Source of the DNA: an uncultured Candidatus Saccharibacteria bacterium
GTDB lineage: Bacteria; Patescibacteriota; Saccharimonadia; Saccharimonadales; JALRHH01
Direction: 5' to 3'
Length of the DNA stretch: 64,000 nt
Assembly (NCBI GenBank): GCA_964639295.1
Contig: CAZXDT010000002.1
Coordinates: 134,896-198,895, forward strand
The notes under the pieces were generated by a model. The model had not been told where the DNA came from. It did not search any database and saw nothing but the letters and a program-made list of their open reading frames with translations. The translations under genes and the position numbers were made by a program. Positions 13,343-62,986 of this stretch are shown piece by piece; position 1 is the stretch's first letter; every line of letters starts with the position of its first letter.

Positions 13343-13821
13343 TGGAACAAACGGTTAAGCGGGCAAAAGAGTTGCTACAGACCGTACGACATGCCGCTAT
13401 GGCCACCGTTAACGAAGATGGTTCGCCACACAATACTCCATACCGATTTATGATCGATGACTCACTCGAGAATGTGTACTGGGGCTCACATCCAGAGTCG
13501 AAGCACTCACGGAACATTGCGCGTACAGGCCAAGTTTTCATCGTACTCTTTGAAGCAAATCAAGGTGGTGGTTTATATATTGAAGGTAGTAATGCTCATG
13601 AGCTAAGCGGTGAAGAATTAGACTCTGCCTTAATAGTGCACAATACCTACAGAAAAATGGAGGGCAAAGAGCCAATTCCGACTGCATACTACCAAGAAAG
13701 TGAGCAGCGAATGTATAGTGCAAAGGTATCGAAACTCTGGGTAAATTATTCTGTGAAAGATGAAGAGGGGCGAGTCTCTCGTGATCTTCGCCAAGAAATC
13801 AACAAGGAGGACTTGCAATGA
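13342..13821 (+). CDS. pyridoxamine 5'-phosphate oxidase-family (FMN-binding split-barrel) protein
   Basis: The GTG start overlaps the polA stop by 1 nt. N-terminal pattern HAAMATVNEDGSPHNTPY is typical of the family. Confidence 0.6.
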   Translation: MEQTVKRAKELLQTVRHAAMATVNEDGSPHNTPYRFMIDDSLENVYWGSHPESKHSRNIARTGQVFIVLFEANQGGGLYIEGSNAHELSGEELDSALIVHNTYRKMEGKEPIPTAYYQESEQRMYSAKVSKLWVNYSVKDEEGRVSRDLRQEINKEDLQ

Positions 13822-14783
13822 GTCGTATATTTAACCTGAACAAGTTAGTACGTGACGGGATAGTTCCAAGCATGGAAGAAATGGGCCAGCAGCCCGTGCA
13901 CCGAGAGCTTGGTGACGAAGAAAAGATAGATGCTTATAAAGCAAAGATTTTAGAAGAATGTAACGAAGGGGACCTTCCTGACTTATTAGAAGTTATTGAG
14001 GCCTGGGCAGAGGCGGAAGGTATGTCGTTCGAAGAACTTCGTCGCCAACAATTAGAAAAACGAGCCAAAATTGGGAGCTTTAGTACGGGCACGTATATTA
14101 GTACACTTACATTGCAAGACGGAGATAAATGGGTGGATTACTATGCAGCAGAACCAGACCGCTTCCCCGAAACTACAACTAATCTTAGGCAGCAAACAGT
14201 TGATACTTACAATCAATCCGCCAAGGAACTTTCTGAATATTTTCAAGGCATTGGTAGTAGGGTGGAGCATATTGATGAAGCTCTCAACATGGCAGGAAAC
14301 GTAGAGAACCCACGAATACTTGAAATAGGATGCGGCGACGGTAGGGATGCAAAAGAAATTGTAGAGCGTACGAGTTCATATGTAGGTTTTGACATATCAG
14401 AAGGTCTCATAGACTACGCAAAGAAAAATGTCCCTGGTGCAGAATTTAGTGCTGCAGACGCAACTACTTTTGAATATCCAGAAAATCTTGATGTGGTCTT
14501 TGCATTTGCTTCATTACTTCATTTAGATAAAACAGAAGTAACCGAAGTCTTGTCTAAGGTTGCTCGATCACTTCGTCCTGGGGGTATATTCTATATATCT
14601 CTTAAGTACAGCTCAGACTATAAAAGCGAAATCAAGGAAGATCAATTTGGTACAAGGCTGTTTTACTTTTATAACGCAGACATAATTGCAGAATGCGGTG
14701 GTGACAGCTACGAGCTTGTGAAAAATGAAGTTGAGCACAAAGGAAATACTGATTGGGCTGAAATAGCTCTAAAAAGAACGTGA
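13818..14783 (+). CDS. fusion protein: MazG-like NTP pyrophosphohydrolase domain + class I SAM-dependent methyltransferase
   Basis: N-terminal KLVRDGIVP...EECNEG...LLEVIEAWAEAEG (MazG/PRA-PH-like). C-terminal ILEIGCGDGRDA SAM motif I. ATGA overlap with the upstream gene. Confidence 0.7.
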   Translation: MSRIFNLNKLVRDGIVPSMEEMGQQPVHRELGDEEKIDAYKAKILEECNEGDLPDLLEVIEAWAEAEGMSFEELRRQQLEKRAKIGSFSTGTYISTLTLQDGDKWVDYYAAEPDRFPETTTNLRQQTVDTYNQSAKELSEYFQGIGSRVEHIDEALNMAGNVENPRILEIGCGDGRDAKEIVERTSSYVGFDISEGLIDYAKKNVPGAEFSAADATTFEYPENLDVVFAFASLLHLDKTEVTEVLSKVARSLRPGGIFYISLKYSSDYKSEIKEDQFGTRLFYFYNADIIAECGGDSYELVKNEVEHKGNTDWAEIALKRT

Positions 14784-15126: not shown

Positions 15127-15732
15127 ATGCATAGAGTAGCCCGAACATCATACGACACCTCAGCTGACCAGTTTAGCCAGCACTATGACCAAATTGGCCC
15201 CAGAGAGGGCGATATTGAGCTAGCCTTTGCTTTGGCAGGTAGCCCAGAACACGCCAGAGTACTAGAAATTGGCTGTGGTAATGGGCGGGATGCCCATTCC
15301 ATCGTGCAGCGCACTAATAATTATACCGGCGTAGACACCTCAGAGAAATTGCTGACAATTGCCCGCAGAAGGGTACCTCGTGGAAACTTTGTGTTATCCA
15401 GCGCGACTGATTTTGAATACGTTGGTCCGTATGATGTTGTGTTTGCGTTTGCCTTGTTCCGCCACATGGATCTTGAGGAAGTGACCGATGTTTTGAGAGA
15501 AGTCTATCGATCCTTAAGGCCCGGTGGTGTTTTTTATATCTCGTCAAATTATGGGTTGAAGTATGAGCCAATTGATCAACAAAGCCCCGTGGGTGGAACA
15601 CGCCGGATCTACACCTATAACCCGGATATTATCCGTAAACATGCACCGGCAGGGCTCAAGCATGTGTACCAAACACGGGATACAGTGGATGGTCACGAGT
15701 GGTTTGAGGTTGCACTTCAAAAGGTATTGTAA
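15127..15732 (+). CDS. class I SAM-dependent methyltransferase, paralog of the C-terminal half of 13818..14783
   Basis: VLEIGCGNGRDA, DVVFAFALFRHM and LRPGGVFYIS line up with the equivalent motifs of the upstream fusion. Confidence 0.8.
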   Translation: MHRVARTSYDTSADQFSQHYDQIGPREGDIELAFALAGSPEHARVLEIGCGNGRDAHSIVQRTNNYTGVDTSEKLLTIARRRVPRGNFVLSSATDFEYVGPYDVVFAFALFRHMDLEEVTDVLREVYRSLRPGGVFYISSNYGLKYEPIDQQSPVGGTRRIYTYNPDIIRKHAPAGLKHVYQTRDTVDGHEWFEVALQKVL

Positions 15733-27330: not shown

Positions 27331-27531
27331 ATGCATAAAGTGGTCCAACGATTTCAAGACAGAGCATGGAAGCATGCGCTTTTCGGCGCAATCATCTTCA
27401 TGATCGCATATGGTCTCGCATCGTGGGCTATAGACTCCGGTCGTTTAACAGCGTATTTCTTGAGCATTGTGTTCTTTATCCTCGGCGTGAGGCAACTCAT
27501 AGGGGCAATTAAGAAGGGCTATGCCAAGTAA
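27331..27531 (+). CDS. small two-TM membrane protein, hypothetical
   Basis: 66-codon ORF with an AGGAG SD 8 nt upstream. Two hydrophobic helices. Confidence 0.5.
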   Translation: MHKVVQRFQDRAWKHALFGAIIFMIAYGLASWAIDSGRLTAYFLSIVFFILGVRQLIGAIKKGYAK

Positions 27532-28120
27532 ACAAGCAGCTCTTGATCAGATTGCGGCAGATATCGTTACTAACAATGTCTGCCCAGATCTGGCCAAGCA
27601 AGCCACTCAACTAGTGTTGGGTGACGGCAATCCAGATGCCGATATCGTATTTATCGGCGAGGCACCAGGCAAGAAGGAAGACGAACAGGGAATTCCGTTT
27701 GTCGGTGCAGCAGGCAGATTTCTAAACGAAATGCTCGCTACCATTGGGCTCGAGCGCCAGGACATTTACATAACAAACATCGTCAAATATCGGCCACCAA
27801 ACAACCGTGATCCTCTTCCCGAGGAAAAACACGCGTTTTTGCCCTATTTGCAGGCCCAGCTAGAAGTAATTAGACCCAAGATCCTCGTGACTCTAGGGCG
27901 ACATAGCACCAATTGCTTCTTGCCGGACTTGCAAATTAGTAAGATCCACGGTCAGCCAAAGCGAACTGAACTTGCTTTGCATGACGATAAGACCAAGAGT
28001 CTACCAATTGTCATTCTGCCGCTTTACCATCCGGCAGCCGCTCTATACAACGGAGGAATGCGGCAGACATTGTTAGACGACTTCGCCGAAATTCCGGCGA
28101 TTCTCAAGAAAATTAATTAA
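27521..28120 (+). CDS. uracil-DNA glycosylase, family 4
   Basis: IVFIGEAPGKKEDEQGIPFVGAAGRFL and the C-terminal HPAAALYN motif. Confidence 0.88.
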   Translation: MPSKQAALDQIAADIVTNNVCPDLAKQATQLVLGDGNPDADIVFIGEAPGKKEDEQGIPFVGAAGRFLNEMLATIGLERQDIYITNIVKYRPPNNRDPLPEEKHAFLPYLQAQLEVIRPKILVTLGRHSTNCFLPDLQISKIHGQPKRTELALHDDKTKSLPIVILPLYHPAAALYNGGMRQTLLDDFAEIPAILKKIN

Positions 28121-40469: not shown

Positions 40470-40532
40470 ACGTTTACACCCTCTACGTTATTTGACTTGC
40501 AAAATGTGCATGTAAAAATTACTATAAGCATT

Positions 40533-42242
40533 ATGAAGAAACAACAGGTGAAATCTAAGAGGGTAACTATGAAGAAAAAATCTAAGTCAAAGAGTAAGGC
40601 TGTTGTCAGCCGTTCATTTGGGATCAGTTCTCTACGCTCAAGCAAGGGGTGGCAGTGGGCTGGAATCGGTATATTTGCGCTCGTTGGGGCTGCATTGCTG
40701 TTCCGATCGTTTGCTAATCCAATCTATTCATCAAAGCCAAGCGACATCGTATTGCAATACGTACAGCCACATAATGACGTGTACGCCGTAGATCAATTAA
40801 GTGATGCCCATTATCCACCGTTTACTCTGTATGGTAACGGATTGCTAGTGTGTAGCGGTGACGATCATGTGTATACTGCGCCTACGCTCCCAGAAGCAGG
40901 TGCGACCCACGAACACTCCAGTGCACCTACAGCCCGAACATTAAGTAAGACAGAGATGGCTAAACTGGTACAGGGAGTACGTGACACTGGGTTCGAGAAT
41001 CTCGATTCCGAATACTTCACAATGCCAGTCGCCCAGAATGAGTACACAATACGTCTCGTTACTAAGGGAAGTGACAAAGCTGTTTTGTACTACAACGATG
41101 TGGCCGCACCAGCTGCCTACACACAGACTTTGGCACTGATGAAAGACGCTTGTGCCGCAACAACTCAGCCATACGTGTCTGCCACGGCAACCGTTCGCGC
41201 TCGACCTGATGTCAATACTACTGGTAAGGAAGTTGACCCAATTGACGGATACGACCAACAGGTCGTAGGTACGCTTAAAGATGTCATGAACAAGAGCAAG
41301 GCTTCTAAGCGTCAGAATGATGCTCAGCGTGCCGCAAATCAAGAGCCAGAGGGCGTTGACGAGGAGACGGCCGAGGTCAGTGGAGCTACTGCTCAAATCT
41401 TGCAAAAGGCAGCTAATGGCCAGGCCAAGAAGTATGTCTCTCTTGATGGCACTAACTATGCAATAAGTGTGGACCCAGACCTTCCAGCAGCAAACAACCC
41501 GATGGATATCGACTACAACAAAGTCCGGGCAGAGACAGATAAGAAAAAAGCTGAGGGTACCAAGAGTGCAAGTTCTCGGCTACTAGAGGCGCTTGATCCT
41601 ACGCAGAAGGTAGACGCTGCAACCACTGGTGGTTACCGTATTGTCGTGTTGCTTGCATCAAACGCAGGTAGTACCTCAAAGCTTGATGAAGCTCAAGCTG
41701 TTGCGTCCAAAATGAACCAGTGGACTTGTAAAGAAGTAGGTAAGTGTCCAGTATTCAAGGGTGTGACCTACATGCGTGGTTCACAGACCCAGGCTTACTA
41801 CAACGCATGCCATATTGACAGCTGTCAGGGCAACCAACTCCTCAATATTCTTTACAACGTATACTTGAAAGACGCAGGCACAATCTCTCGTACAGATGTA
41901 GCAACATTAATTGTTCCTGGTTGGAAAACAAATACTTTGAGCACTTCTGGTACTAAAGCATGTGGATGGGGCTTCCACCCAGGTAACCTTGGGGCAGTTG
42001 ACCTATATCAGACAGAACCTATCAACGGTCTAACGTGTGTTCCATTGTCTAAGGCATTCCCGCACGAGTACCTTCACAACAGGGGTCTCGGCCACATATC
42101 CTTCTGTAGCAACAGGAATCTTATGGATGGCCCTCCAGGATGTAAGTACTCAAACGGTTGTACGATCGTCCTTGGTAGAGACAACACCTGTTTACTATCT
42201 GACAACCAAGCTGACAAGCTTAAGGCTAACGCCGCATACTAG
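40533..42242 (+). CDS. secreted/membrane-anchored protein with a C-terminal metzincin-type zinc-binding motif
   Basis: Lys-rich N-terminus plus a TM helix (WAGIGIFALVGAALLF). HEYLHNRGLGH near the C-terminus matches HEXXHXXGXXH exactly. I chose start ATG 40533. Confidence 0.55.
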   Translation: MKKQQVKSKRVTMKKKSKSKSKAVVSRSFGISSLRSSKGWQWAGIGIFALVGAALLFRSFANPIYSSKPSDIVLQYVQPHNDVYAVDQLSDAHYPPFTLYGNGLLVCSGDDHVYTAPTLPEAGATHEHSSAPTARTLSKTEMAKLVQGVRDTGFENLDSEYFTMPVAQNEYTIRLVTKGSDKAVLYYNDVAAPAAYTQTLALMKDACAATTQPYVSATATVRARPDVNTTGKEVDPIDGYDQQVVGTLKDVMNKSKASKRQNDAQRAANQEPEGVDEETAEVSGATAQILQKAANGQAKKYVSLDGTNYAISVDPDLPAANNPMDIDYNKVRAETDKKKAEGTKSASSRLLEALDPTQKVDAATTGGYRIVVLLASNAGSTSKLDEAQAVASKMNQWTCKEVGKCPVFKGVTYMRGSQTQAYYNACHIDSCQGNQLLNILYNVYLKDAGTISRTDVATLIVPGWKTNTLSTSGTKACGWGFHPGNLGAVDLYQTEPINGLTCVPLSKAFPHEYLHNRGLGHISFCSNRNLMDGPPGCKYSNGCTIVLGRDNTCLLSDNQADKLKANAAY

Positions 42243-42261
42243 ATATCTAGAGCAGTGTAAT

Positions 42262-42289
42262 AAAAACGACCCCAGTTGGGGTCGTTTTT
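42262..42289. terminator. bidirectional rho-independent terminator
   Basis: AAAAACGACCCC-AGTT-GGGGTCGTTTTT lies between convergent genes. Confidence 0.85.
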
Positions 42290-43382
42290 ATTTAGAAATG
42301 TTAAATCGAAACTCGACTATATCGTCGGGTTTCATAACGTAATCTTTACCAACGGTAGCAACCTTGCCGGCTGATTTTGCAGCGGTTTCTGAGCCAGCGG
42401 CAATTAAGTCATCGTAACTGACAATTTGAGCGGCAATAAAGCCTTTCTCGAAGTCAGTGTGAATAACACCGGCCGCTTGCGGTGCAGTGTCGCCTTGGTG
42501 AATCGTCCAGGCGCGGATCTCTTTTTCACCTGCAGTCAGGTAGCTTTGCAACCCGAGTGTGTCGTAGGCAGCATGGATTAACTGTACGAGCCCAGACTCG
42601 CTCACTCCGTAACTATCAAGCAGTTCAATGCGGTCACTGTCATCAAGCCCGCGTAGCTCACTCTCCATCTTGGCGCATACAAACAAACAGCTCGCAGGAA
42701 CAACAAGGTCGATTAGCTCTTGCTGTCGTGTGGTGTTAGACAAGTCGTCCTCATCTACGTTAAATAAGTAGATAACTGGTTTCATGGTCAGTAAATGGAG
42801 ATCCTGTAGAAGCTCAGCATTCTTTGCTCGCCATTCATCACCCTTCTGGAAGAGTGGTTGGCCACTGTCGAGGCTGTCTTTGGCTTCTTTTAGGAGTTCA
42901 GCCACCGGCTTGAGCTTAGGGTCAGATTTGGCTAACTTTTCAGTTTGAGGCAGGCGTTTTTCGACAGTTTGCAGATCGGCTAGAACTAGCTCGGTGTTGA
43001 TAACATCGATGTCTTTACGCGGGTTATGCTCCTCGTCAACATGTTGGACGTTGCTGTCACTAAAGGCACGTACTACTTGAACAATTGCATTGGTGCTGCG
43101 GATGTGGCTAAGAAACTGGTTCCCCAGGCCTTCGCCCTTACTAGCACCCTCAACCAGCCCAGCGATGTCCACGAAGGTAACAGTAGCGGGGAGGATCTTT
43201 TGACTACCATATAGCTCTGCGAGCTTGCCGAGACGTTCATCGGGGATGGGTACAATACCGGTATTCGGTTCTATTGTGGCAAAAGGGTAATTAGCCGCCA
43301 ATATATTATTGTCGGTCAGGGCATTAAACAGGGTGGATTTACCAACGTTGGGCAATCCTACAATTCCAATAGATACTGACAT
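42288..43382 (-). CDS. ychF: redox-regulated ATPase YchF
   Basis: IGIVGLPNVGKSTLFNALT and a C-terminal TGS-like HTDFEKGFIAAQIV. Confidence 0.95.
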   Translation of the reverse strand: MSVSIGIVGLPNVGKSTLFNALTDNNILAANYPFATIEPNTGIVPIPDERLGKLAELYGSQKILPATVTFVDIAGLVEGASKGEGLGNQFLSHIRSTNAIVQVVRAFSDSNVQHVDEEHNPRKDIDVINTELVLADLQTVEKRLPQTEKLAKSDPKLKPVAELLKEAKDSLDSGQPLFQKGDEWRAKNAELLQDLHLLTMKPVIYLFNVDEDDLSNTTRQQELIDLVVPASCLFVCAKMESELRGLDDSDRIELLDSYGVSESGLVQLIHAAYDTLGLQSYLTAGEKEIRAWTIHQGDTAPQAAGVIHTDFEKGFIAAQIVSYDDLIAAGSETAAKSAGKVATVGKDYVMKPDDIVEFRFNISK

Positions 43383-43404: not shown

Positions 43405-45369
43405 CTAACTATTTGCCATGTACCACATGGCGCCTTGGTTGCTGTTGAAGTACTGAGCAGTGTTACCAGGTAACTCTATGAGTAGCGTCGGGATGCCTAT
43501 TTTATCGTGCAGCCAGTTCTCGTACGCCCCCGTTGTGTCGTAATTGAAGGTGTTACCGAGGTTGCTTTCCGCTAATATGCCGTAACCTGTCTTTCGTCCA
43601 TATATGGTTGCAAGCGCCATGGAATCACCAGATTCGTTAGCTGTTACGAGTGAACCTTTTGCATGGTAGGTTAGCACAAGCTTTGGGCTGAGACTCTGTG
43701 TGTAGGCTGCGAGTATGGCAGACTCAGGCTCGGATAGGGGTGCCGTACCACCCCCGTTTTGCACCAACTGGCCACCAGGCACGGTTACATTGGCTTTCCA
43801 GCTGTTGGCAGGGAAGTTACGGTTCAGATCTACGTCGTGGGCATTGAGCCTACTATTATGGGCGACCCCATCAGGATTGACTGCCGGAATAACAATTATT
43901 TTGCGGTTTGCGGGTAGTTTGTAGGCGTTGGCATCGAGGTAACTAATCCAAGCATCAAGCACCAGTTTAGAACTAGTTTCGTTACCATGGGTTGCCCCGA
44001 CATAGAGCACCGTACTTGTACCTGAACCAAACTGCCATGCTGTAACAGACCTGCCTTCTACAGAGGTGCCGATTGAAAATGCTGTTCCACATGCCGCCCG
44101 GCTGCTGTAATCCCAGGCATTGTTACCGCTAATTCCGTAGCTGTTTTGCAGTTTGTCACTGACATGAAGTGCCAGCGCCTCACAGGCAGCTAGTGGTCGA
44201 GCAAGTTTGATAGTTGCCGTGTTTCCCTTAACGGAAATTGAGCCAATACCGGCATTTGATGCAGATATAAATTGGGCGATGGCGGTTGGGTTTATTGCTG
44301 TATCGAAGGTCAGTACAATAGTAGGGTTTGTGTTGATGCGGCTTTGGCCGATATTTACCCCTGTTACTTTTGGGCCACCTGAGGTGGTAAAGCTCGTTGT
44401 GAAAGCATTGGTAAGGTAGCCTTTGTCTGTAGCTGTGGTGCCATTCACTGATACTTCAAACGAAGTACTGCGGGGGAGTGGGGTGGAAAAGGTAGCTACC
44501 AACTGGCTGTCTTTTGCCGCAAGAGTATGAGGGATATCCTTGCCATTGCTTCGAATTGTTACGGTCCCTTGCTTATCAATAGCTTTGTTAAAGGTGATTG
44601 TGAATTGCTTAGGGTCGTCATAGACGGTACTTGCAGCCGGGAGGCTCGTTGCGGTGGCAATGAGGGGTTCAACAGTTACAACCTTGTGAGTAAAGATTGA
44701 TCCTGCAGGTGTCGCTTTGAGGCTGCGCTTTACCTCAAGCTCATAGTGCTTGCCCTGCGCTAAGTTGAGCGGGGTAATATTACAACTGACCTGGGCTTCC
44801 TTAGTGATGCAATTGGTGTTTTTGTCACCGGAGGACAAGCTGTAAGTAAAAGTTTCGTCAGGTTTATCAAGTGTATATATTAGCGTTTCATTGACTGCGA
44901 TAAGCGGAGGCTGTGATTGCTTAGTACTAACTTGAGGCAGTGCAGAGCCCTTGATAGTTAGGACCTGGCTTAGTGGCGTTCCAAAAACACGCATATTTGC
45001 GTGTTGGGGTGTGTCGGTTGCTAAGGGTTTTATTAAAGTAGCGCAGGTTTTCCCGGCTATAACAGGGAAATTGCCAATTTTTACCTGTTCATGTGGGGTT
45101 AACTGATATGAATCGGGCTGCCGCACGTTATGTAGGCTAGGCAGGAAGGTCGGAACGCTTGAACATGTCTCTCCGGCGTATGAGTAGGTGAGGGTACGAG
45201 GCCAGAAAAATAAAGTGGTATAGACGCTAGCAATAAGCAGGAGACAAACGGCGGCTACAGCTATATAGAAGTGGGGACCTGCAAAACGCAGCGCTAAAGC
45301 TCTCGCTCGTAGGTGAGCAACAGTGCGTTGTGGCAGGTTAGGGGCTTTTTTATCTGCTGGAGGTACCAT
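43405..45369 (-). CDS. membrane-anchored protein with Ig-like repeats and a C-terminal M14 zinc carboxypeptidase domain
   Basis: TM helix near the N-terminus. M14 motifs GATHGNETSS (HxxE), NPDG, DLNRNFP and LTYHAKGS. Confidence 0.8.
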   Translation of the reverse strand: MVPPADKKAPNLPQRTVAHLRARALALRFAGPHFYIAVAAVCLLLIASVYTTLFFWPRTLTYSYAGETCSSVPTFLPSLHNVRQPDSYQLTPHEQVKIGNFPVIAGKTCATLIKPLATDTPQHANMRVFGTPLSQVLTIKGSALPQVSTKQSQPPLIAVNETLIYTLDKPDETFTYSLSSGDKNTNCITKEAQVSCNITPLNLAQGKHYELEVKRSLKATPAGSIFTHKVVTVEPLIATATSLPAASTVYDDPKQFTITFNKAIDKQGTVTIRSNGKDIPHTLAAKDSQLVATFSTPLPRSTSFEVSVNGTTATDKGYLTNAFTTSFTTSGGPKVTGVNIGQSRINTNPTIVLTFDTAINPTAIAQFISASNAGIGSISVKGNTATIKLARPLAACEALALHVSDKLQNSYGISGNNAWDYSSRAACGTAFSIGTSVEGRSVTAWQFGSGTSTVLYVGATHGNETSSKLVLDAWISYLDANAYKLPANRKIIVIPAVNPDGVAHNSRLNAHDVDLNRNFPANSWKANVTVPGGQLVQNGGGTAPLSEPESAILAAYTQSLSPKLVLTYHAKGSLVTANESGDSMALATIYGRKTGYGILAESNLGNTFNYDTTGAYENWLHDKIGIPTLLIELPGNTAQYFNSNQGAMWYMANS

Positions 45370-45477: not shown

Positions 45478-45506
45478 TTGACAAAGGATGTATAATCGTG
45501 TAGAGT
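45478..45506 (+). promoter_or_regulatory. candidate sigma-70 promoter in native AT-rich DNA, pointing into the GC-rich island
   Basis: TTGACA-17 nt-TAGAGT. A perfect TATAAT (45491..45496) also lies inside the spacer. Confidence 0.4.
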
Positions 45507-45704
45507 ATATACTGTTTACTGTGTGAGGTATCTCCATACTGCGAGAAACCAGCTAAGTATACGAACTTTGACATGTCAGATTGTAGATAATTAGGAGGCC
45601 CTTTGGGGTGCGAACTTACCTGTGTAGCTATACACTGGTGAGCCCGCATCCCAACAAGGGGAAGTGGTACGTGGCCCTAGGCCCAAAACAGAGGAGTGAC
45701 ATCA

Positions 45705-46334
45705 ATGTCCCACCACAAACTGTCGAGGCGCCGCAGGGCTCTCGTCACCACCATCGCGACTGCAGCAGCCGCTGTCATCGCTGGCGCGTTCATGTTCATC
45801 ACGGCCGCCAACGCCGCCGACGGGGAATCCTCCCAAGGTTCCGCGGTTCTCGACTGCGAAGCCGGTGTCGTTCACGTCACCGCATCGGTGGTTCCGGTCG
45901 ACGGTCAGGTGGTTCCGGATCACTTCGTGATCACGTTCGACCCGAACGGGGCCGAGCGCGTACCACTCGATGAGGTCGACCTGCCCAACGGGGAGGACAA
46001 CACCTTCACCAAGGACTACTCGCTCGCGAGTCTTCCCAGCGGCGGTACCGTCGTCGTCGAGGCCGACAACATGACGCGTGTCGACAGCGTGAACGTGGCT
46101 ACCTGCAACAGCGATCCCGACCCCGTCGACGTCTGCCCGAATCTCGAAGGAGATCAGGCTGAGGTGCCGCCCGGCATGGTCGTGCTCGACGGAGACTGCG
46201 TCACCTACCAGCCGCCGCCGGTGGACAACGGTGACCCCGACCCCGTCGACGTTCCCAACGTCGAGGACGGTCACACCGGTCACACCAAGCCGCCGAAGAA
46301 CGGTGACTACTCGCTCCCCAAGACGGGCGCGTAG
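45705..46334 (+). CDS. Tat-signal / LPXTG-motif surface-protein gene, high-GC, truncated immediately after the sorting motif
   Basis: GAGGAG SD 9 nt upstream. SRRRRALV...ANA|AD signal peptide, a duplicated DPDPVDV motif, and an ending of ...SLPKTGA-stop with no hydrophobic anchor. Third codon positions are almost all G/C. Confidence 0.6.
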   Translation: MSHHKLSRRRRALVTTIATAAAAVIAGAFMFITAANAADGESSQGSAVLDCEAGVVHVTASVVPVDGQVVPDHFVITFDPNGAERVPLDEVDLPNGEDNTFTKDYSLASLPSGGTVVVEADNMTRVDSVNVATCNSDPDPVDVCPNLEGDQAEVPPGMVVLDGDCVTYQPPPVDNGDPDPVDVPNVEDGHTGHTKPPKNGDYSLPKTGA

Positions 46335-46344
46335 CGCGTGATCA

Positions 46345-46400
46345 CTGCTGGGTGCAGGCATGTCAGGGCAATAGCCTTCGATACTGCCTGCACCCAGCAG
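46345..46400 (+). terminator. GC-rich perfect 16-bp hairpin without a U-tract, downstream of the island gene
   Basis: CTGCTGGGTGCAGGCA-(24 nt)-TGCCTGCACCCAGCAG. Confidence 0.5.
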
Positions 46401-46585
46401 CACCCGCTCTCCCAACAATCCAATCTGACATGTCATTCCTACCTACTGTTACTTGAGATGTGGCAATAGCCACCTTGATTAGTCACAGTATCTTGGATAA
46501 GTGGATAACTAGTTGTCGTAACTAGTTGTTTTTTGTTATGATCAAGCTAATGTTTAGTACTTGAGAGGGCTTGGCTAAAAATACA

Positions 46586-47155
46586 ATGACTGATAACTCC
46601 GAATCGGACTCAAAGTTTGTCTCCCAAAGCTTTAAGAAGCGAAAACGTTTGCCAAAGGGTAAGCGACTTATTTATGCAGTAGTTATTATTTCTTTAATTT
46701 TGGTAGCAGTCGCAGCTGTCATATACAAGCGAAGTCATACAAGTAAGACTTCAGGGGATCAAGAGTTTAGTTATCAAGACCAACTGAGTCATGAATTGTC
46801 TTCAGCTCAAAAAGCTGTCGCATCCAATAAAACACCCACTGACGATAAGGCTAAAGAAAAGCAAGCCAGCGATTATGTTGCTCTAGGTAATGCCTTATTG
46901 AACAAGGATCAGCCAAAAGAAGCAATTGATGCCTTCAAGAAAGCTCTCGAGCTTTCGGGCACGGCAAAACAAGAAGCTCTCGGAGGCCTTGTGTCGGCTT
47001 ACGATGCAAACAACCAACCGTCAGAAGCAATTAAATCCGCCGAAGAACTGATTGCTTATCTCAAAACGCTTCCTCAGGATAACGCGAGTGTCTTGCAGAG
47101 GATTAGAGCTGTTCAAAATGACCTTGATAGATTAAAGAGCGGGCAAAAACTATGA
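46586..47155 (+). CDS. TPR-repeat membrane-anchored protein
   Basis: TM helix LIYAVVIISLILVAVAAVIY, then TPR-like ALGNALLNKDQPKEAIDAFKKALELS. The start is uncertain (TTG 46571 or ATG 46586). Confidence 0.6.
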   Translation: MTDNSESDSKFVSQSFKKRKRLPKGKRLIYAVVIISLILVAVAAVIYKRSHTSKTSGDQEFSYQDQLSHELSSAQKAVASNKTPTDDKAKEKQASDYVALGNALLNKDQPKEAIDAFKKALELSGTAKQEALGGLVSAYDANNQPSEAIKSAEELIAYLKTLPQDNASVLQRIRAVQNDLDRLKSGQKL

Positions 47156-49245
47156 AATTACATCGACGATTAGCATTGCTACTGGCTCTTGCATCAGCTT
47201 TTTCTCTTGTGCTTAACACGGGTGCAGCCTATGCGTTGTACTGTGATGCAGGGGGTTTTGGTCGGGCTGGTTGTCACGGGTTCTTTACTAATGGTAACGC
47301 GGATTACTATGCTGCCCATGACGGAAGCCCTGCGGACGAAGTGGATGACGTTATTGAGGCGGGTTTATTTGTTAGTAGTGCCAATGAATTCCTTACGCAA
47401 GTAAATGCCAACCTCTATGCTTCCAGTACAAGAAAGCAAATGGGCGCGGCCTTTATTATTGACGGTATGCTTGGCTATCATAACCCAACAAGCCGCACGA
47501 ACGGTATTAACTGGGCAAAAAGTCATTGGAGCCTCTTTGAACAGAGAGTGAGGCAGTACGCCAACTCTAATTCGACCAGTTATGGAGTTGACTGGAATAG
47601 GAGTACGAGCGTAGGTGGACGTAACAGCGCATACTTTGCTGCTATTAATGATGATGCCTTTCATGAGGACTCAGGCAGTGTAGCTGCGATATACTTCTAC
47701 TGGCCTGGCGGCTCGTTTGCGATCCAGCGTAACTGTGCCAACTTGATTGGGAGCTTAAATGTACCTCCACCGCGATCTTGGGACCCTGAACCAACCACCC
47801 TAATTAATAAGACAACCATGAACTTAGGTGACACAGTAACCTGGACACATAATGTAAAGAATGTCGGATCATATAAAACCAAAGACCTTGTCGGGGATGT
47901 CTATTGGCGAAGTGATAGCACGGGTGCATTACCTGCGGCTACGTTCCCATCCGCAACGTACAGAGATCTTACGAACAATAGTGTAGTTCCCAATAAGTCA
48001 TACGGCCCCATTGCGTTAGCGGCAGGTGCGAGCATCTCTGCAAGTGGAATAACGTATTCATTCAAGCCAACAGCAATAGGGAAGTATTGTCAGGCTATAT
48101 TAGTAAACTGGACATCATCATCCGATAGCACTAACCAGGTAAGTGCAGAAAAATGCGTAACAGTAACTACTCCTCCAGGGCCGAACACGGTCAAGCCTAA
48201 AGTTGAGATTATAAACACTACTCATAGCGGTGCAGACTATATTGAGCCAGGTGACAGCTTTAAGGCGGATGGGTCACTAGAGAGTACGGCGTCATCAACG
48301 GTCAAGAATACTGTCTGGGAAGTCTGGCTAGAAACTAATTCCACATCTGCCGGTGCTACGAAAGATGTAGGTGAATACAGTAGTTTTGTAACATCAGGCA
48401 CACTAGGTGCGGGGACTATAACGTTTACGGGCACCAAGCCTGCCGGTACTACCACAGGTCAGGTTACGATTGCACTAGCGAACACGGCTAATTTTGTATG
48501 TGCCAGATTAGTGACTGAAGGTGTTAGCCCAACTGACGTCGATCCTCCGGAAGGCATCATAAAGTGTCTCCCCATCCAAACCCGCCCCTTCTTCCAAGTC
48601 ACGGGTGGTGACGTTAATGCCGCAGCTGTCATGAAAAGTGGTGGGTCATGCCCAACCTCAAGCAATGGACTTCTTGCAGGATGGAACAACGGTACATCTG
48701 GAGCAAATACAAACATTGCAGCCTTTGCAGCACAGGCAATAACAGAGTTTGCATCACATAACCCACCTATTGGCCTAACATTTGCGAATACTCCGGCCAC
48801 ACCCTGGGGGGGTGAGTTTGATGAGGTATATTGTGTTGAGGGCGTGACATCCGATCCAAGCATTCCTCCTGTCTTTATTGATGCTGCTGGGACATACAAC
48901 GGCTCTGTATCTACAGCAGGTGACATTATTATTAGCAACAATGTGACAATTATTAATGGCATCTTTAAAGCTGGCGGCAATATTTACACCTGTGGTACCG
49001 CAATTGGTCCTACGCTTGCTGTAAACATGAAAACCGCCTGTAGTAACAAACTAACCGTCAATGGTAGTTTCACCGCCAACACTATATACCTCCTGCGTAC
49101 TCTTGGAAGTCTTGGCAACGGAGAACCAGCAGAACAGTTTAATTATGGCCCTGAGGTATGGCTTCCTGGAATCACGCCATCTGGCGGCGGCTCCATTGAC
49201 CTCGGTGACGCCGACTCAGTCACTAGTTTACCGCCGGTATTGTAG
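47152..49245 (+). CDS. large secreted hypothetical protein (697 aa) at the head of the pilus cluster
   Basis: Signal peptide MKLHRRLALLLALASAFSLVLNTGAAYA. ATGA overlap with the TPR gene. Thr/Ser/Gly/Asn-rich and beta-rich in appearance. Confidence 0.65.
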   Translation: MKLHRRLALLLALASAFSLVLNTGAAYALYCDAGGFGRAGCHGFFTNGNADYYAAHDGSPADEVDDVIEAGLFVSSANEFLTQVNANLYASSTRKQMGAAFIIDGMLGYHNPTSRTNGINWAKSHWSLFEQRVRQYANSNSTSYGVDWNRSTSVGGRNSAYFAAINDDAFHEDSGSVAAIYFYWPGGSFAIQRNCANLIGSLNVPPPRSWDPEPTTLINKTTMNLGDTVTWTHNVKNVGSYKTKDLVGDVYWRSDSTGALPAATFPSATYRDLTNNSVVPNKSYGPIALAAGASISASGITYSFKPTAIGKYCQAILVNWTSSSDSTNQVSAEKCVTVTTPPGPNTVKPKVEIINTTHSGADYIEPGDSFKADGSLESTASSTVKNTVWEVWLETNSTSAGATKDVGEYSSFVTSGTLGAGTITFTGTKPAGTTTGQVTIALANTANFVCARLVTEGVSPTDVDPPEGIIKCLPIQTRPFFQVTGGDVNAAAVMKSGGSCPTSSNGLLAGWNNGTSGANTNIAAFAAQAITEFASHNPPIGLTFANTPATPWGGEFDEVYCVEGVTSDPSIPPVFIDAAGTYNGSVSTAGDIIISNNVTIINGIFKAGGNIYTCGTAIGPTLAVNMKTACSNKLTVNGSFTANTIYLLRTLGSLGNGEPAEQFNYGPEVWLPGITPSGGGSIDLGDADSVTSLPPVL

Positions 49246-56230: not shown

Positions 56231-56689
56231 ATGTCATTACAACAACTTAAAAAGAAAACAGAAGGCTTCACTATTATCGAAGTCTTGATCGTGCTGGCTA
56301 TTGCTGGTTTGATCTTGTTGATCGTATTCTTGGCTGTTCCAGCCTTACAGCGTAACTCACGCAACACTCAGCGCACAGACGATGTTGCTAGAGTACTTGG
56401 TGCAGCGCAAGAAGTACTGAACAATAATAACGGTAGTCTTGCAGCGCTCGATGACGCTCATCTTCAGGCAGCTGTGGGTGATTCGTTAGCATACTACGAG
56501 ATTGCCAACGTTACTGTAGCTGGTAGTGGTGCCAACGGTGCGATTGATAATGTTGATGCTATTCAGATTCGTACTGGTGCATCTTGTGCTACTAATGGTG
56601 ACGCAGCGGATGGTACAACTCGTCAACTTGTAGCACAGTTTACAGTTGAAGGTGGTAATGGTACTGTGGGTCGTTGTCAATCAAGTTAA
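56231..56689 (+). CDS. pilA: major type IV pilin
   Basis: Class III signal ...KKTEG|FTIIEVLIVLAIAGLILLIVF. AAGGGGG SD upstream and a strong terminator downstream. Confidence 0.88.
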   Translation: MSLQQLKKKTEGFTIIEVLIVLAIAGLILLIVFLAVPALQRNSRNTQRTDDVARVLGAAQEVLNNNNGSLAALDDAHLQAAVGDSLAYYEIANVTVAGSGANGAIDNVDAIQIRTGASCATNGDAADGTTRQLVAQFTVEGGNGTVGRCQSS

Positions 56690-56702
56690 ACACGAACCTG
56701 TT

Positions 56703-56740
56703 AAACAAAAACACGCTGGATATCCAGCGTGTTTTTGTTT
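56703..56740 (+). terminator. rho-independent terminator (38-nt perfect palindrome)
   Basis: AAACAAAAACACGCTGGAT|ATCCAGCGTGTTTTTGTTT. Confidence 0.85.
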
Positions 56741-56753
56741 AACATAAGCTTAA

Positions 56754-60551: not shown

Positions 60552-61487
60552 TTACTGGTTACGTTTGTGGTGGAACTTTTCGTGGACTGACTTTAGGTGG
60601 GGATCAGTGACATGGGTGTAGATCTGGGTTGTTGAGATGTTGCTGTGGCCAAGCATGGCTTGGACAGAGCGTAGGTCAGCGCCGTTCATAAGTAAGTCTG
60701 TAGCAAAGCTATGACGCAGTGTGTGCGGGCTGACATGTTTGGTTATGCCAGCTAGTAATGCGTACTTGGCCACCATTCTTTGAACACTCCGTGCAGTTAG
60801 ACGGTGAAAGTTACCGGAAGTATCAACAGTTTTCTTGCCGCTGTATCGGGCAAATAGTGGACGGGCAGTATCTGTTCGCTTTTCTAAGTATTTAGTAATC
60901 CACTCAGCTGCTTCTTCGCTAATGAAGATTGGACGGTCTTTCTGGCCCTTACCACGGACCATAAATTCACGACGTTTGCTATTAATGTGTTCGCGGTCAA
61001 GTCCGACAAGCTCTGATACACGAAGACCTGAGGAAAAAAGTAGTTCCAAGATGGCACGATCACGCAAGCCGGGGAGGGTACTAATATCAGGCTCGGCGAA
61101 TAAGCGTTCTAGTTCCTCTGGATTCAAGAAAGTCACTTGTTTGCGAACGGTTTTAGCTAACTCAATTTTATCTGCGGTTAGTGCTGGGATGTCGCGCTTG
61201 GCACAGAACTTGAGGAAGCTCCTTAAAGCAATAAGGTGATAGTTCTGGGTATTCTTCTGCAGCTCATCACTGACGTTAGTGCCCAGCCGATTGAGCCACA
61301 GTCGCCATTTACGGATAAGTTCCGGGTCGATGTCGCTAATTTTAATATCACCGGCAAAGTCACTCAGGCGTGTTAGGTAGTGATCGTAGTTCCGGATCGT
61401 CTTTTGCGAACGGTTCTGCTCGATCTCAAGGTATTCCAGGAAGTCGACTTTGGCTTTTGTGAATAACATAACCATATTGTACGACAC
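60552..61487 (-). CDS. tyrosine site-specific recombinase, XerC/XerD type
   Basis: Core-binding N-domain and a catalytic domain with GLRVSELVGL (Arg), HTLRHSFATDLL, LGHSNISTTQIYTHV (Tyr). Confidence 0.88.
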   Translation of the reverse strand: MSYNMVMLFTKAKVDFLEYLEIEQNRSQKTIRNYDHYLTRLSDFAGDIKISDIDPELIRKWRLWLNRLGTNVSDELQKNTQNYHLIALRSFLKFCAKRDIPALTADKIELAKTVRKQVTFLNPEELERLFAEPDISTLPGLRDRAILELLFSSGLRVSELVGLDREHINSKRREFMVRGKGQKDRPIFISEEAAEWITKYLEKRTDTARPLFARYSGKKTVDTSGNFHRLTARSVQRMVAKYALLAGITKHVSPHTLRHSFATDLLMNGADLRSVQAMLGHSNISTTQIYTHVTDPHLKSVHEKFHHKRNQ

Positions 61488-62137: not shown

Positions 62138-62158
62138 CTGCTCTATCCATTGAGCTGC
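62138..62158 (-). repeat. inverted copy of the tRNA-Arg D-arm region
   Basis: The reverse complement GCAGCTCAATGGATAGAGCAG matches tRNA 62201..62221 at 20 of 21 positions. Confidence 0.85.
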
Positions 62159-62194: not shown

Positions 62195-62270
62195 GCCTCG
62201 GTAGCTCAATGGATAGAGCAGTTCCGTCCTAAGGAAAAGGTTGCAGGTTCGACTCTTGCCCGGGGCACCA
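62195..62270 (+). tRNA. tRNA-Arg (anticodon CCT), CCA encoded
   Basis: Manual cloverleaf: acceptor GCCTCGG/CCGGGGC, D arm GCTC-AATGGATA-GAGC, anticodon arm GTTCC-GTCCTAA-GGAAA, T arm GCAGG-TTCGACT-CTTGC, then A73 and CCA. Length 76 nt. Confidence 0.88.
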
Positions 62271-62458: not shown

Positions 62459-62986
62459 GTGGCAGGAAATGACGAATTACTAGATCTTGTAAACGAAAAA
62501 GATGAAATTATAGGGACAATTTGGCGATCCGAGTATGACAAGCTCGAGTCAGAAAACCTTGGCTATATTCGCGCTGTTGAAATGTTTATTGTTAACGATA
62601 AGAACGAGCTATGGATACCAAAACGTACGGCCCATAAAACGATAGCCCCGAATGGCTTAGATTTTAGCGTTGGCGGACACGTCAGCAGTGGTGAAACATA
62701 CCCAGAAGCCATGCTTAAAGAGACCCGTGAAGAACTTAACATGAATCTGGCCGAAGATGATCTTGAGTTTATTGAGACAATCGGCCCGGACGCCAATAGA
62801 TATATCAGAAAACTCTATATCCATCGTAGTAACCAGACACCCAAGTACAATCCTGATGATTTTGTAAGTGCAAGTTGGCTAAGTACAGGCGCAATTTTAG
62901 AGATGTTAGATGCAGGAGTACCAGCGAAGTCCTCCTTGCGAGATACGGTTGCGTTAGTCGCCGGTCGTCTCGCCACTGAACAGTAG
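62459..62986 (+). CDS. NUDIX hydrolase
   Basis: Nudix box GGHVSSGETYPEAMLKETREELNM. AAAGGAG SD and a GTG start. Confidence 0.8.
   Translation: MAGNDELLDLVNEKDEIIGTIWRSEYDKLESENLGYIRAVEMFIVNDKNELWIPKRTAHKTIAPNGLDFSVGGHVSSGETYPEAMLKETREELNMNLAEDDLEFIETIGPDANRYIRKLYIHRSNQTPKYNPDDFVSASWLSTGAILEMLDAGVPAKSSLRDTVALVAGRLATEQ

Follow-up and report, generated by a model that had tools for sequence, protein, structure and literature searches.

Pairing between the two ends of a message is known from the hok fold-back mRNA (tac/fbi), from icaR in Staphylococcus aureus, in which the 5' and 3' untranslated regions (UTRs) pair, and from the RNase III stems that flank rRNA. Saccharibacteria grow on the surface of Actinobacteria, and little is known of the way in which they recognize and hold their hosts; genetic tools exist for a tractable Saccharibacterium (PMC10633639). 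We analyzed a 64-kb stretch of contig CAZXDT010000002.1 from an uncultured Candidatus Saccharibacteria bacterium (hereafter the window; overall GC 0.466), in which a GC-rich open reading frame (ORF) for a surface-like protein is enclosed by two 15-bp inverted repeats, IR-L and IR-R. We call this locus the cassette, and it was found in seven genomes including that of the window. As in the end-paired mRNAs, complementary segments near the predicted transcript ends enclose the coding region, the UTRs are structured, and folding predictions give a stable structure for each of the seven genomes. The cassette differs from them in that its arms are 15 nt long, perfect and invariant in sequence, have a palindromic core, are not located at the ribosome-binding site, and would form a stem with minimal covariation. 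The encoded protein resembles LPXTG sortase-anchored proteins (TIGR01167) in its N-terminal signal, Ig-like modules, Pro-rich stalk and C-terminal LPxTG, whereas in the window and in four relatives the protein ends with the first residue past the Gly, without a hydrophobic segment or basic tail.

The explanation that we prefer, with a probability of roughly one half, is that the locus is a conserved unit, complete in itself, for a structured mRNA that encodes a hypervariable surface protein for interaction with the host; the repeats would form a stem that closes the 5' end onto the 3' end. The transcription unit is placed between YchF (together with an M14 peptidase in the window) and the type IV pilus cluster, and the strong promoter outside IR-L would drive an mRNA with hairpin-bearing 5' and 3' UTRs, which is predicted to start near 45512, to include IR-R and to have staggered processed ends within the repeat duplex. 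The repeat arms, ~840 nt apart, are predicted to pair and would close the message into a compact structure with its ends sequestered. The closing stem and the terminal hairpins would most likely govern how the mRNA is processed, how stable it is or how it is translated, in a manner similar to 5'-3' fold-back mRNAs or RNase III processing stems. The secreted, modular, Ig-like protein would serve host attachment beside the pilus genes, and its anchor would have been deleted in the window genome and in four others, so that the product would be released or held by its N-terminus.

The locus is real and conserved. In an exhaustive HMMER search of a library of 1.84 billion (1.84e9) representative protein sequences, P0112 and P0199 were the only full-length relatives of the window protein, and the rest matched a short CPNLEG repeat. 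Four further family members came from a profile search and one DNA-pattern scan. The comparison set was therefore n=7 genomes (the window, L008, L009, L013, L014/15, L016/17 and L018); the data behind it come from nine different sample or contig accessions, and the comparisons rest on assembled contigs. Wherever the flanks were available (6/7 genomes), the order of the locus was Pribosyltran, a beta-lactamase-like protein, YchF (-), the cassette (+), a small protein, a ~700-aa protein and PilM/N/O/B. The architecture of the cassette is also shared by the seven genomes (Table 1): the outside promoter (off the contig in L009), the block ACGAAYTTTGACATGTCAGATTG, the hairpins H1 and H2, the Shine-Dalgarno sequence and the GC-rich ORF are followed by a hairpin with an inner GGC-NNNN-GCC loop, a C-rich tract, IR-R and the right block. 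The promoter lies outside the repeats, as the original prediction stated, and it occurs as TTGACA-17-TAAAAT/TAGAAT in L008, L013, L014, L016 and L018; the contig of L009 is too short to include this region. At the leader/IR-L block, ACGAAY/ACGATC together with TTTGACATGTCAGATTG is present in all seven genomes, a purine-rich equivalent of the Shine-Dalgarno sequence was found in all relatives, and the block GTGGATAACTAGTTG...TATGATCAAGCTAATG around the promoter-like site of the downstream genes is conserved in relatives.

The protein diverges far more than this frame. Identity between genomes was 69–93% for YchF (five genomes), 20–64% for the cassette proteins and 25–32% for the downstream ~700-aa protein, and in the noncoding parts it was 73–95% for the inner UTRs and 62–87% for the outer flanks. 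The genomes fall into the same groups by their inner and by their outer noncoding parts, and on this ground a repeat-bounded unit moving apart from its flanks was rejected. Judged from these comparisons, the cassette locus is a vertically inherited frame with a very fast evolving cargo in one Saccharimonadales (TM7) clade.

The exact repeats described in the original prediction are present, and they are the sole exact copies of the 15-mer in the window; the suggested search for further copies, run within the 64 kb, gave none beyond the two arms. The core TGACATGTCA within IR-L is a 10-bp palindrome, and IR-R deviates in its outer 1–2 nt in L008 and L013. By chance, ~7% of shuffled windows (3/40) contain a perfect inverted repeat of 15 bp within 1 kb, and the repeat alone is therefore not significant; on the alignments, its significance comes from conservation in the six other genomes and not from the window alone. 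A second perfect long-range repeat of 15 bp, CTAACAATGTCTGCC / GGCAGACATTGTTAG, was noticed at 27570-27584 and 28062-28076, 477 nt apart, inside an ORF of the UDG family (27521-28120). Any such repeat is expected by chance ~0.075 times per shuffled window, and two in one window are odd. Single matches to the 17-mer TTTGACATGTCAGATTG in the IMG/VR viral contigs L010 (1420-1436), L011 (4056-4072) and L012 (2616-2632) have no partner arm nearby and are likely due to chance, and they were not accepted as related elements.

Both UTRs contain hairpins that are conserved with covariation as sense-strand RNA. In alignments of the seven sequences, which served both to predict the structures and to count covariation, H1 has 18 pairs, of which five changed on both sides, with A-U<->G.U switches and 96% of the cells paired. 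For the whole 24-pair 5' UTR structure, 96.4% of the cells were paired and the covariation exceeded that of 500/500 shuffles, and slid controls were only 29–48% paired. The 3' hairpin has 19 pairs, four with changes on both sides (8 double-change cells); here 97.7% of the cells were paired, and the covariation again exceeded 500/500 shuffles. In these UTR hairpins, 26 G.U cells correspond to A.C mismatches on the opposite strand, and the hairpins are therefore structures of the sense-strand RNA. No T-run follows the 16-bp outer stem of the 3' hairpin, in agreement with the original prediction, and no intrinsic terminator was found from the stop codon to IR-R. The C-rich tract that follows is possibly a rut-like element or a spacer. 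A search of Rfam 15 gave only sub-threshold chance matches to eukaryotic miRNA, snoRNA and lncRNA models even at E<=1-5, and membership in a known RNA family was rejected.

Pairing of IR-L with IR-R in the RNA is plausible from the fold predictions. In whole-mRNA folds (820–1165 nt), the IR-L:IR-R stem was part of the minimum free energy structure in 7/7 genomes, with a mean pair probability of 0.92–0.995. At the position just inside the repeat, two genomes have a C:G pair, two have U:A, one has U.G and two have a mismatch. Within the stem, one pair has double changes and one outer pair has changed from G-C to G.U (in L008), and inner complementarity has been gained in L013.

Several observations weigh against the closed-mRNA explanation. 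Thirteen of the 17 tested IR-L:IR-R pairs never vary, and such invariance is neutral on pairing; the covariation score of the stem was reached by 65/500 shuffles. A perfect 15-bp duplex is expected to be predicted as paired, and the predicted pairing is hence no independent evidence. The invariant block around IR-L reaches 8 nt past the paired part, and its core is the perfect palindrome mentioned above. Together with the unvarying sequence of the arms, the palindrome and the 8 extra invariant nt left of IR-L suggest that the repeats are also recognized in a sequence-specific manner by a protein, possibly on DNA; an RNA stem alone does not account for the palindrome and the extra nt. The RNA of the coding sequence is not more structured than shuffled sequences (z = -1.46 for the sense and -0.34 for the antisense strand), and for this reason we also rejected the idea that the high GC serves RNA structure within the ORF. 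No consistent pairing of the ribosome-binding region with the 3' UTR was predicted across the seven genomes; masking of the ribosome-binding site by the 3' C-rich tract, as in icaR, was rejected because the predicted partners are inconsistent. Finally, the model gives no account of why the fraction of G or C at third codon positions (GC3) stays near 0.8.

This compositional anomaly is persistent and sharp. The island between the repeats (45584-46420, 837 bp) has a GC of 0.63 vs 0.466 for the window, and the ORF has a GC of 0.65 and a GC3 of 0.81 (C3 0.55, G3 0.27). The other 55 ORFs of the window have a mean GC3 of 0.435 (sd 0.046, maximum 0.519), which places the cassette ORF at z = 8.25, and the break that the original prediction had seen coincides with the repeats. 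In the seven genomes, the cassette ORFs have a GC of 0.56–0.65 and a GC3 of 0.67–0.83 on contigs of 0.43–0.47 GC. By zone, GC is 0.35–0.44 in the outer flanks, 0.50–0.60 in the inner UTRs and 0.56–0.65 in the ORF, and the boundary falls sharply at the repeats in all genomes. Where the amino acid is the same, third bases at 4-fold sites agreed in a fraction of 0.31–0.42 for YchF (0.27–0.28 expected from composition) and of 0.28–0.55 for the cassette (0.29–0.38 expected). The observed identity is near the compositional expectation, which indicates that synonymous sites are near saturation, yet the cassette stays G/C-ending. Because the anomaly persists across this near-saturated divergence, the comparisons argue that the high GC3 is maintained and is not the residue of a recent transfer. 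None of the six relatives has the gene at native GC; all hold the same high GC3.

The protein text reads MSHHKLSRRRR...ANA|AD...DPDPVDV(x2)...SLPKTGA-stop. From the N-terminus, it consists of a basic and hydrophobic signal (residues 1–37), a beta-sandwich module B (residues ~44–120), one Cys-bracketed CPNLEG repeat (residues ~138–174), a Pro/Asp/His-rich tail and the terminal LPKTGA. The two DPDPVDV copies noted in the original prediction belong to a 27-nt repeat at 46106-46132 and 46226-46252. The family is likewise modular: modules A and B are Cys-bracketed, the CPNLEG repeat is optional, the tail is rich in Pro and His, and the N-terminal signal is of two types, MSxHKLxRRRR and MFRYLLRRLR. 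A twin-arginine translocation (Tat) signal had been proposed from the RRRR sequence. It matched neither the Pfam model at E<=0.1 (PF10518) nor the NCBIfam model at E<=1 (TIGR01409), the N-terminus is of the LRRLR type in 4/7 members, and we rejected the Tat signal for want of model support. In the structure model (overall pLDDT 53), residues ~44–120 form a beta-sandwich with means of 58–80 for blocks of 10 residues. The fold matches were to generic Ig-like proteins at E>0.009, and a weak profile match was obtained to the 'adhesion exoprotein' domain 2KYW (E = 0.007). With this low model confidence and only generic Ig-like matches, a function assigned from structure was rejected. The ORF product fits a surface protein that is secreted, modular and Ig-like and that belongs with the sortase substrates. 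We propose a role in host attachment because the protein evolves far faster than the neighboring housekeeping genes and because its gene is adjacent to pilus genes.

The anchor is lost in the window protein. As the original prediction had it, no hydrophobic run or basic tail follows the LPKTGA in any of the three downstream frames, and the protein has no TIGR01167 match at E<=1. Its relatives P0230 and P0231 keep the full signal of LPNTG, hydrophobic segment and basic residues, with 34–35 residues after the Gly, and P0230 scores 23.3 on TIGR01167 (curated cut-off 15.9), which bears out the sortase-substrate assignment made at the outset. Five of the seven members end exactly one residue past the Gly, three with ...TGA-stop and two with ...TGK-stop, and in these five the 3' hairpin begins 9–16 nt past the stop. 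All seven members terminate in LPxTG or, in L009, AETG, and the motif is thus kept after loss of the anchor. The anchor looks to have been lost by a clean in-frame deletion, and probably at least twice, because anchorless ends occur in both architectural groups. The anchorless product would then leave the cell or stay attached through its N-terminus alone, still with a minimal sortase recognition site. TM7 genomes are known to encode sortases and sorted proteins (PMC3812714). A domain scan of the 54 window ORFs of >=150 aa, a set that does not include the ORF at 62459-62986, found no sortase domain. As to the Cys-bracketed motif DVCPNLEGDQAEVPPGMVVLDGDCV itself (46116-46226), it recurs, up to 13 times per protein, in most of the 292 matches from the representative library, and it is without a Pfam model; some carriers of the CPNLEG repeat end with LPxTG/LAETG anchors and others with tails of the ...APNTGAGG type.

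Table 1. Positions of the cassette features in the window.
Feature	Position	Strand	Remarks
Sigma-70-type promoter, TTGACA-17-TAGAGT	45478..45506	+	Outside IR-L
Leader from promoter to IR-L	45507..45568	+	3' end ACGAACTT in near-invariant block continuing into IR-L
IR-L, TGACATGTCAGATTG	45569..45583	+	Invariant in 7/7 genomes
5' UTR hairpin H1	45605..45652	+	Base GGGRUGCG...CGCAUCCC, apical stem variable
5' UTR small hairpin H2 (GGG...GGCC-loop-GGCC...CCC)	45659..45684	+	Pairs invariant, hence little information
Shine-Dalgarno sequence, GAGGAG	45691..45696	+	8 nt upstream of ATG; read from sequence
ORF, 209 aa	45705..46334	+	GC3-rich, modular
LPKTGA and TAG stop	46314..46334	+	LPKTG = residues 204–208; one residue (Ala) after Gly
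3' UTR hairpin	46345..46400	+	16-bp GC-rich outer stem 46345-46360 / 46385-46400; inner stem-loop GGC-AAUA-GCC
C-rich, G-poor tract between 3' hairpin and IR-R	46401..46420	+	7/7 genomes
IR-R, CAATCTGACATGTCA	46421..46435	+	Exact in 5/7 genomes; exact reverse complement of IR-L in the window
Conserved outer right block, TTCCTACCTACTGTTACTTGAGA	46436..46460	+	
Separate promoter-like site	46513..46542	+	For downstream genes (TPR protein, ~700-aa protein, pilM...)

The original prediction had also pointed to a repeat around GGCAATAGCC. Both copies exist, at 46367 and 46462, and the pair was rejected as a functional repeat since the outer copy is missing from all relatives and is thus incidental. 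An antisense ORF of 244 aa (45702-46436, minus strand) starts inside IR-R and covers the island; its counterpart in L013 has other ends and the ORF is not conserved. Antisense ORFs of this kind are expected opposite GC3-rich genes.

Among the alternatives, an invertible DNA switch is possible and in our judgment unlikely. The repeats would be sites for a site-specific recombinase, and a flip would separate the gene from its promoter outside the repeats and turn the surface protein off, as phase variation. Invertons such as fimS, hin and the Bacteroides invertible regions have in common with the cassette short exact inverted repeats, a variable surface structure, and a promoter and a gene on opposite sides of one repeat. 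Here the gene lies inside the repeats together with its ribosome-binding site and the promoter beyond them, the cargo is a variable surface protein, and the repeats are exact and invariant across genomes as for protein-recognized sites. Furthermore, the palindromic core suits dimer binding, exchange between the arms would keep them identical, and the window has a gene for a XerC/D-like tyrosine recombinase at a distance of 14 kb (60552-61487). On the other hand, the cassette differs from invertons in that the whole gene, not the promoter, is between the repeats, and no recombinase is adjacent to it in any locus. The inverted orientation would show junctions such as ...ACGAACTTTGACATGTCAGATTG|GATTGTTGGGAGAGC... 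or ...TGACATGTCAGATTG|GATTGTTGGG..., whereas 10 contigs from 10 samples (L001, L002, L004, L008, L009, L013-L018) are all in the ON orientation (look-ups by the exact protein are blind to orientation). The Logan contigs are unbroken at the repeat boundaries, unlike what orientation polymorphism would give. The loss of the outer 1–2 nt of IR-R in L008 and L013, which breaks the right palindrome, and the inner complementarity gained in L013 also speak against recombination sites.

Similarly unlikely as a full account, and compatible with the structured mRNA unit, is an ancient capture, in which a foreign repeat-bounded module from a high-GC Gram-positive bacterium (e.g., the actinobacterial host) was inserted once, upstream of the pilus cluster, in the ancestor of the clade and domesticated; the repeats would then be relics or sites put to a new use. 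Like horizontally acquired islets, the cassette has a strong GC/GC3 deviation with sharp boundaries, the compositional boundary is at the repeats in all genomes, and codon usage is G/C-ending throughout. L009 has a LAxTG-like motif (AETG), and P0002, the sole word-level homologue outside the family, is an LAETG-anchored protein. In addition, the more distant Saccharimonadales relatives L003 and L006 are without the cassette and have 180–220 bp of intergenic DNA at this place. However, the library of representatives contains no full-length homologue outside the seven genomes and thus no identifiable donor, since matches outside the family involve nothing but the CPNLEG repeat, which is widespread. 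The cassette has neither mobility genes nor a target-site duplication. No tblastn or blastn match to plasmids or phages was obtained, by which a plasmid or phage origin was rejected. Unlike in such islets, the deviation is stable across saturated divergence; amelioration should have erased the GC3 by now, and origin alone cannot explain the composition.

An improbable and more speculative reading addresses the composition directly. Diversification or replacement specific to this locus, by GC-biased conversion or targeted mutagenesis, would act only between the two invariant repeats, and it would hold GC3 at ~0.8 together with fast protein turnover; in addition, the anchorless LPxTG-X-COOH variants would be released by the epibiont and grafted onto the host wall by the host sortase, as a receptor or mark for type IV pili. 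A diversity-generating retroelement (DGR) target was rejected, since no second, template-like copy of any island segment is present in the window and no reverse transcriptase domain was found among the scanned window ORFs.

We regard paired operators as quite improbable. A dimeric regulator would bind TGACATGTCA on the DNA at both ends of the gene and act by roadblock or looping, perhaps on read-through into the pilus operon. The perfect 10-bp palindrome at both ends, the conservation of the IR-L block past the paired region, and the location of one site in the transcribed leader and the other just upstream of the next promoter are consistent with this. Against it, the non-palindromic GATTG extension is conserved in inverted form on both sides and the next position covaries, neither of which is required of an operator. 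L008 and L013 have a broken right palindrome, no regulator is encoded next to the cassette, and the palindrome was not found again in any fetched locus (64 kb and ~40 kb of related loci).

A mobile element with terminal inverted repeats (TIRs) and cargo, one of the options first put forward, was rejected. Non-autonomous (MITE-like) elements also have terminal inverted repeats that bound a distinct segment without a transposase, whereas the cassette is at a single syntenic site (with flanks in six of the seven genomes), has one copy in the 64 kb, no transposase, no direct repeat abutting the inverted repeats and no target-site duplication, and its outer promoter and right block are co-conserved. 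The weakest reading, a recent transfer of an actinobacterial surface-protein fragment to the epibiont or a co-assembly chimera with host reads, agrees with the sharp GC3 outlier and with an actinobacterial-looking protein of seemingly truncated C-terminus, but is highly improbable, given that the gene, its frame and its composition are at the same locus in six other genomes with near-saturated synonymous sites, that the truncation is common to 5/7 members, that the 1.84 billion representatives contain no donor-like full-length homologue, and that three independent assemblies match at 100%, L001/L002 (SRR8931241/42) across both junctions and L004 (SRR8931239) across the left one from the M14 peptidase. 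The exact window protein was found in two of these Logan assemblies (SRR8931241, SRR8931242). The SRR accessions gave no match in a search of the literature for descriptions of the samples.

The surroundings of the cassette are those of a Saccharibacteria-like genome, as had been supposed. The named relatives of the flanking M14 peptidase are mostly Candidatus Saccharimonadales, with 42% identity to the nearest species representative, and the window encodes the housekeeping proteins DnaG, RpoD, PolA, PNPase, RNase J, FtsK, SSB and EF-P. Directly 3' of the island are a TPR protein and the ~700-aa protein, followed by the type IV pilus cluster with PilM/N/O, PilB, PilT, PilC, pilins and prepilin peptidase. 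Compared with L008, L013, L014 and L016, the window has two extra genes, one for a 581-aa DUF6438-like protein (40497-42242) and one for the M14 peptidase / Big_5 protein (43405-45369), which sits between YchF and the cassette and has its own divergent promoter (45434-45406, minus strand). The ~700-aa protein (window 47152-49245; L014 8045-10249; L016 3696-6035; L018 3067-5271; L003 47-2374) has no Pfam domain and native GC. It is hypervariable in itself, with 25–32% identity where YchF has 82–93%, and its C-terminus ...SLPPVL / SLPPIL is conserved between the window and the L003 homologue. In L018, YchF (693-1787) was called as two ORFs of 215 and 130 aa, owing to a frameshift or an assembly error.

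Other features were noted in passing. A perfect 46-bp palindrome (23+23, without spacer) at 56699-56744 directly follows the pilin gene at 56231-56689 and is probably a bidirectional terminator, and a similar palindrome is present at 42259-42292 between the convergent 581-aa gene and YchF. The recombinase gene mentioned above, on the minus strand, directly follows the pilus cluster. About 650 bp beyond it, a 19-bp perfect inverted copy (62138-62156) of the 5' part of tRNA-Arg(CCT) is located just upstream of the tRNA (62195-62270), and an integration event at this tRNA may have left it behind. The ORFs at 13818-14783 and 15127-15732 are neighboring paralogues of SAM-methyltransferases with the same set of Pfam domains.

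The locus combines an invariant long-range inverted repeat, two covarying UTR hairpins and a C-rich tract, none of which is in the RNA family libraries. That a gene in a genome of 46% GC keeps its GC3 near 0.8 while synonymous divergence saturates is contrary to what ordinary amelioration predicts. This compositional regime points to strong locus-specific mRNA selection, biased conversion or recurrent replacement, each of which would be informative on genome evolution in reduced symbionts. The locus heads a type IV pilus cluster, the rate at which its protein evolves is many times that of the neighboring housekeeping genes, and its sorting motif has survived the loss of the anchor, which makes the protein a testable candidate for a host-interaction factor of these Saccharibacteria.

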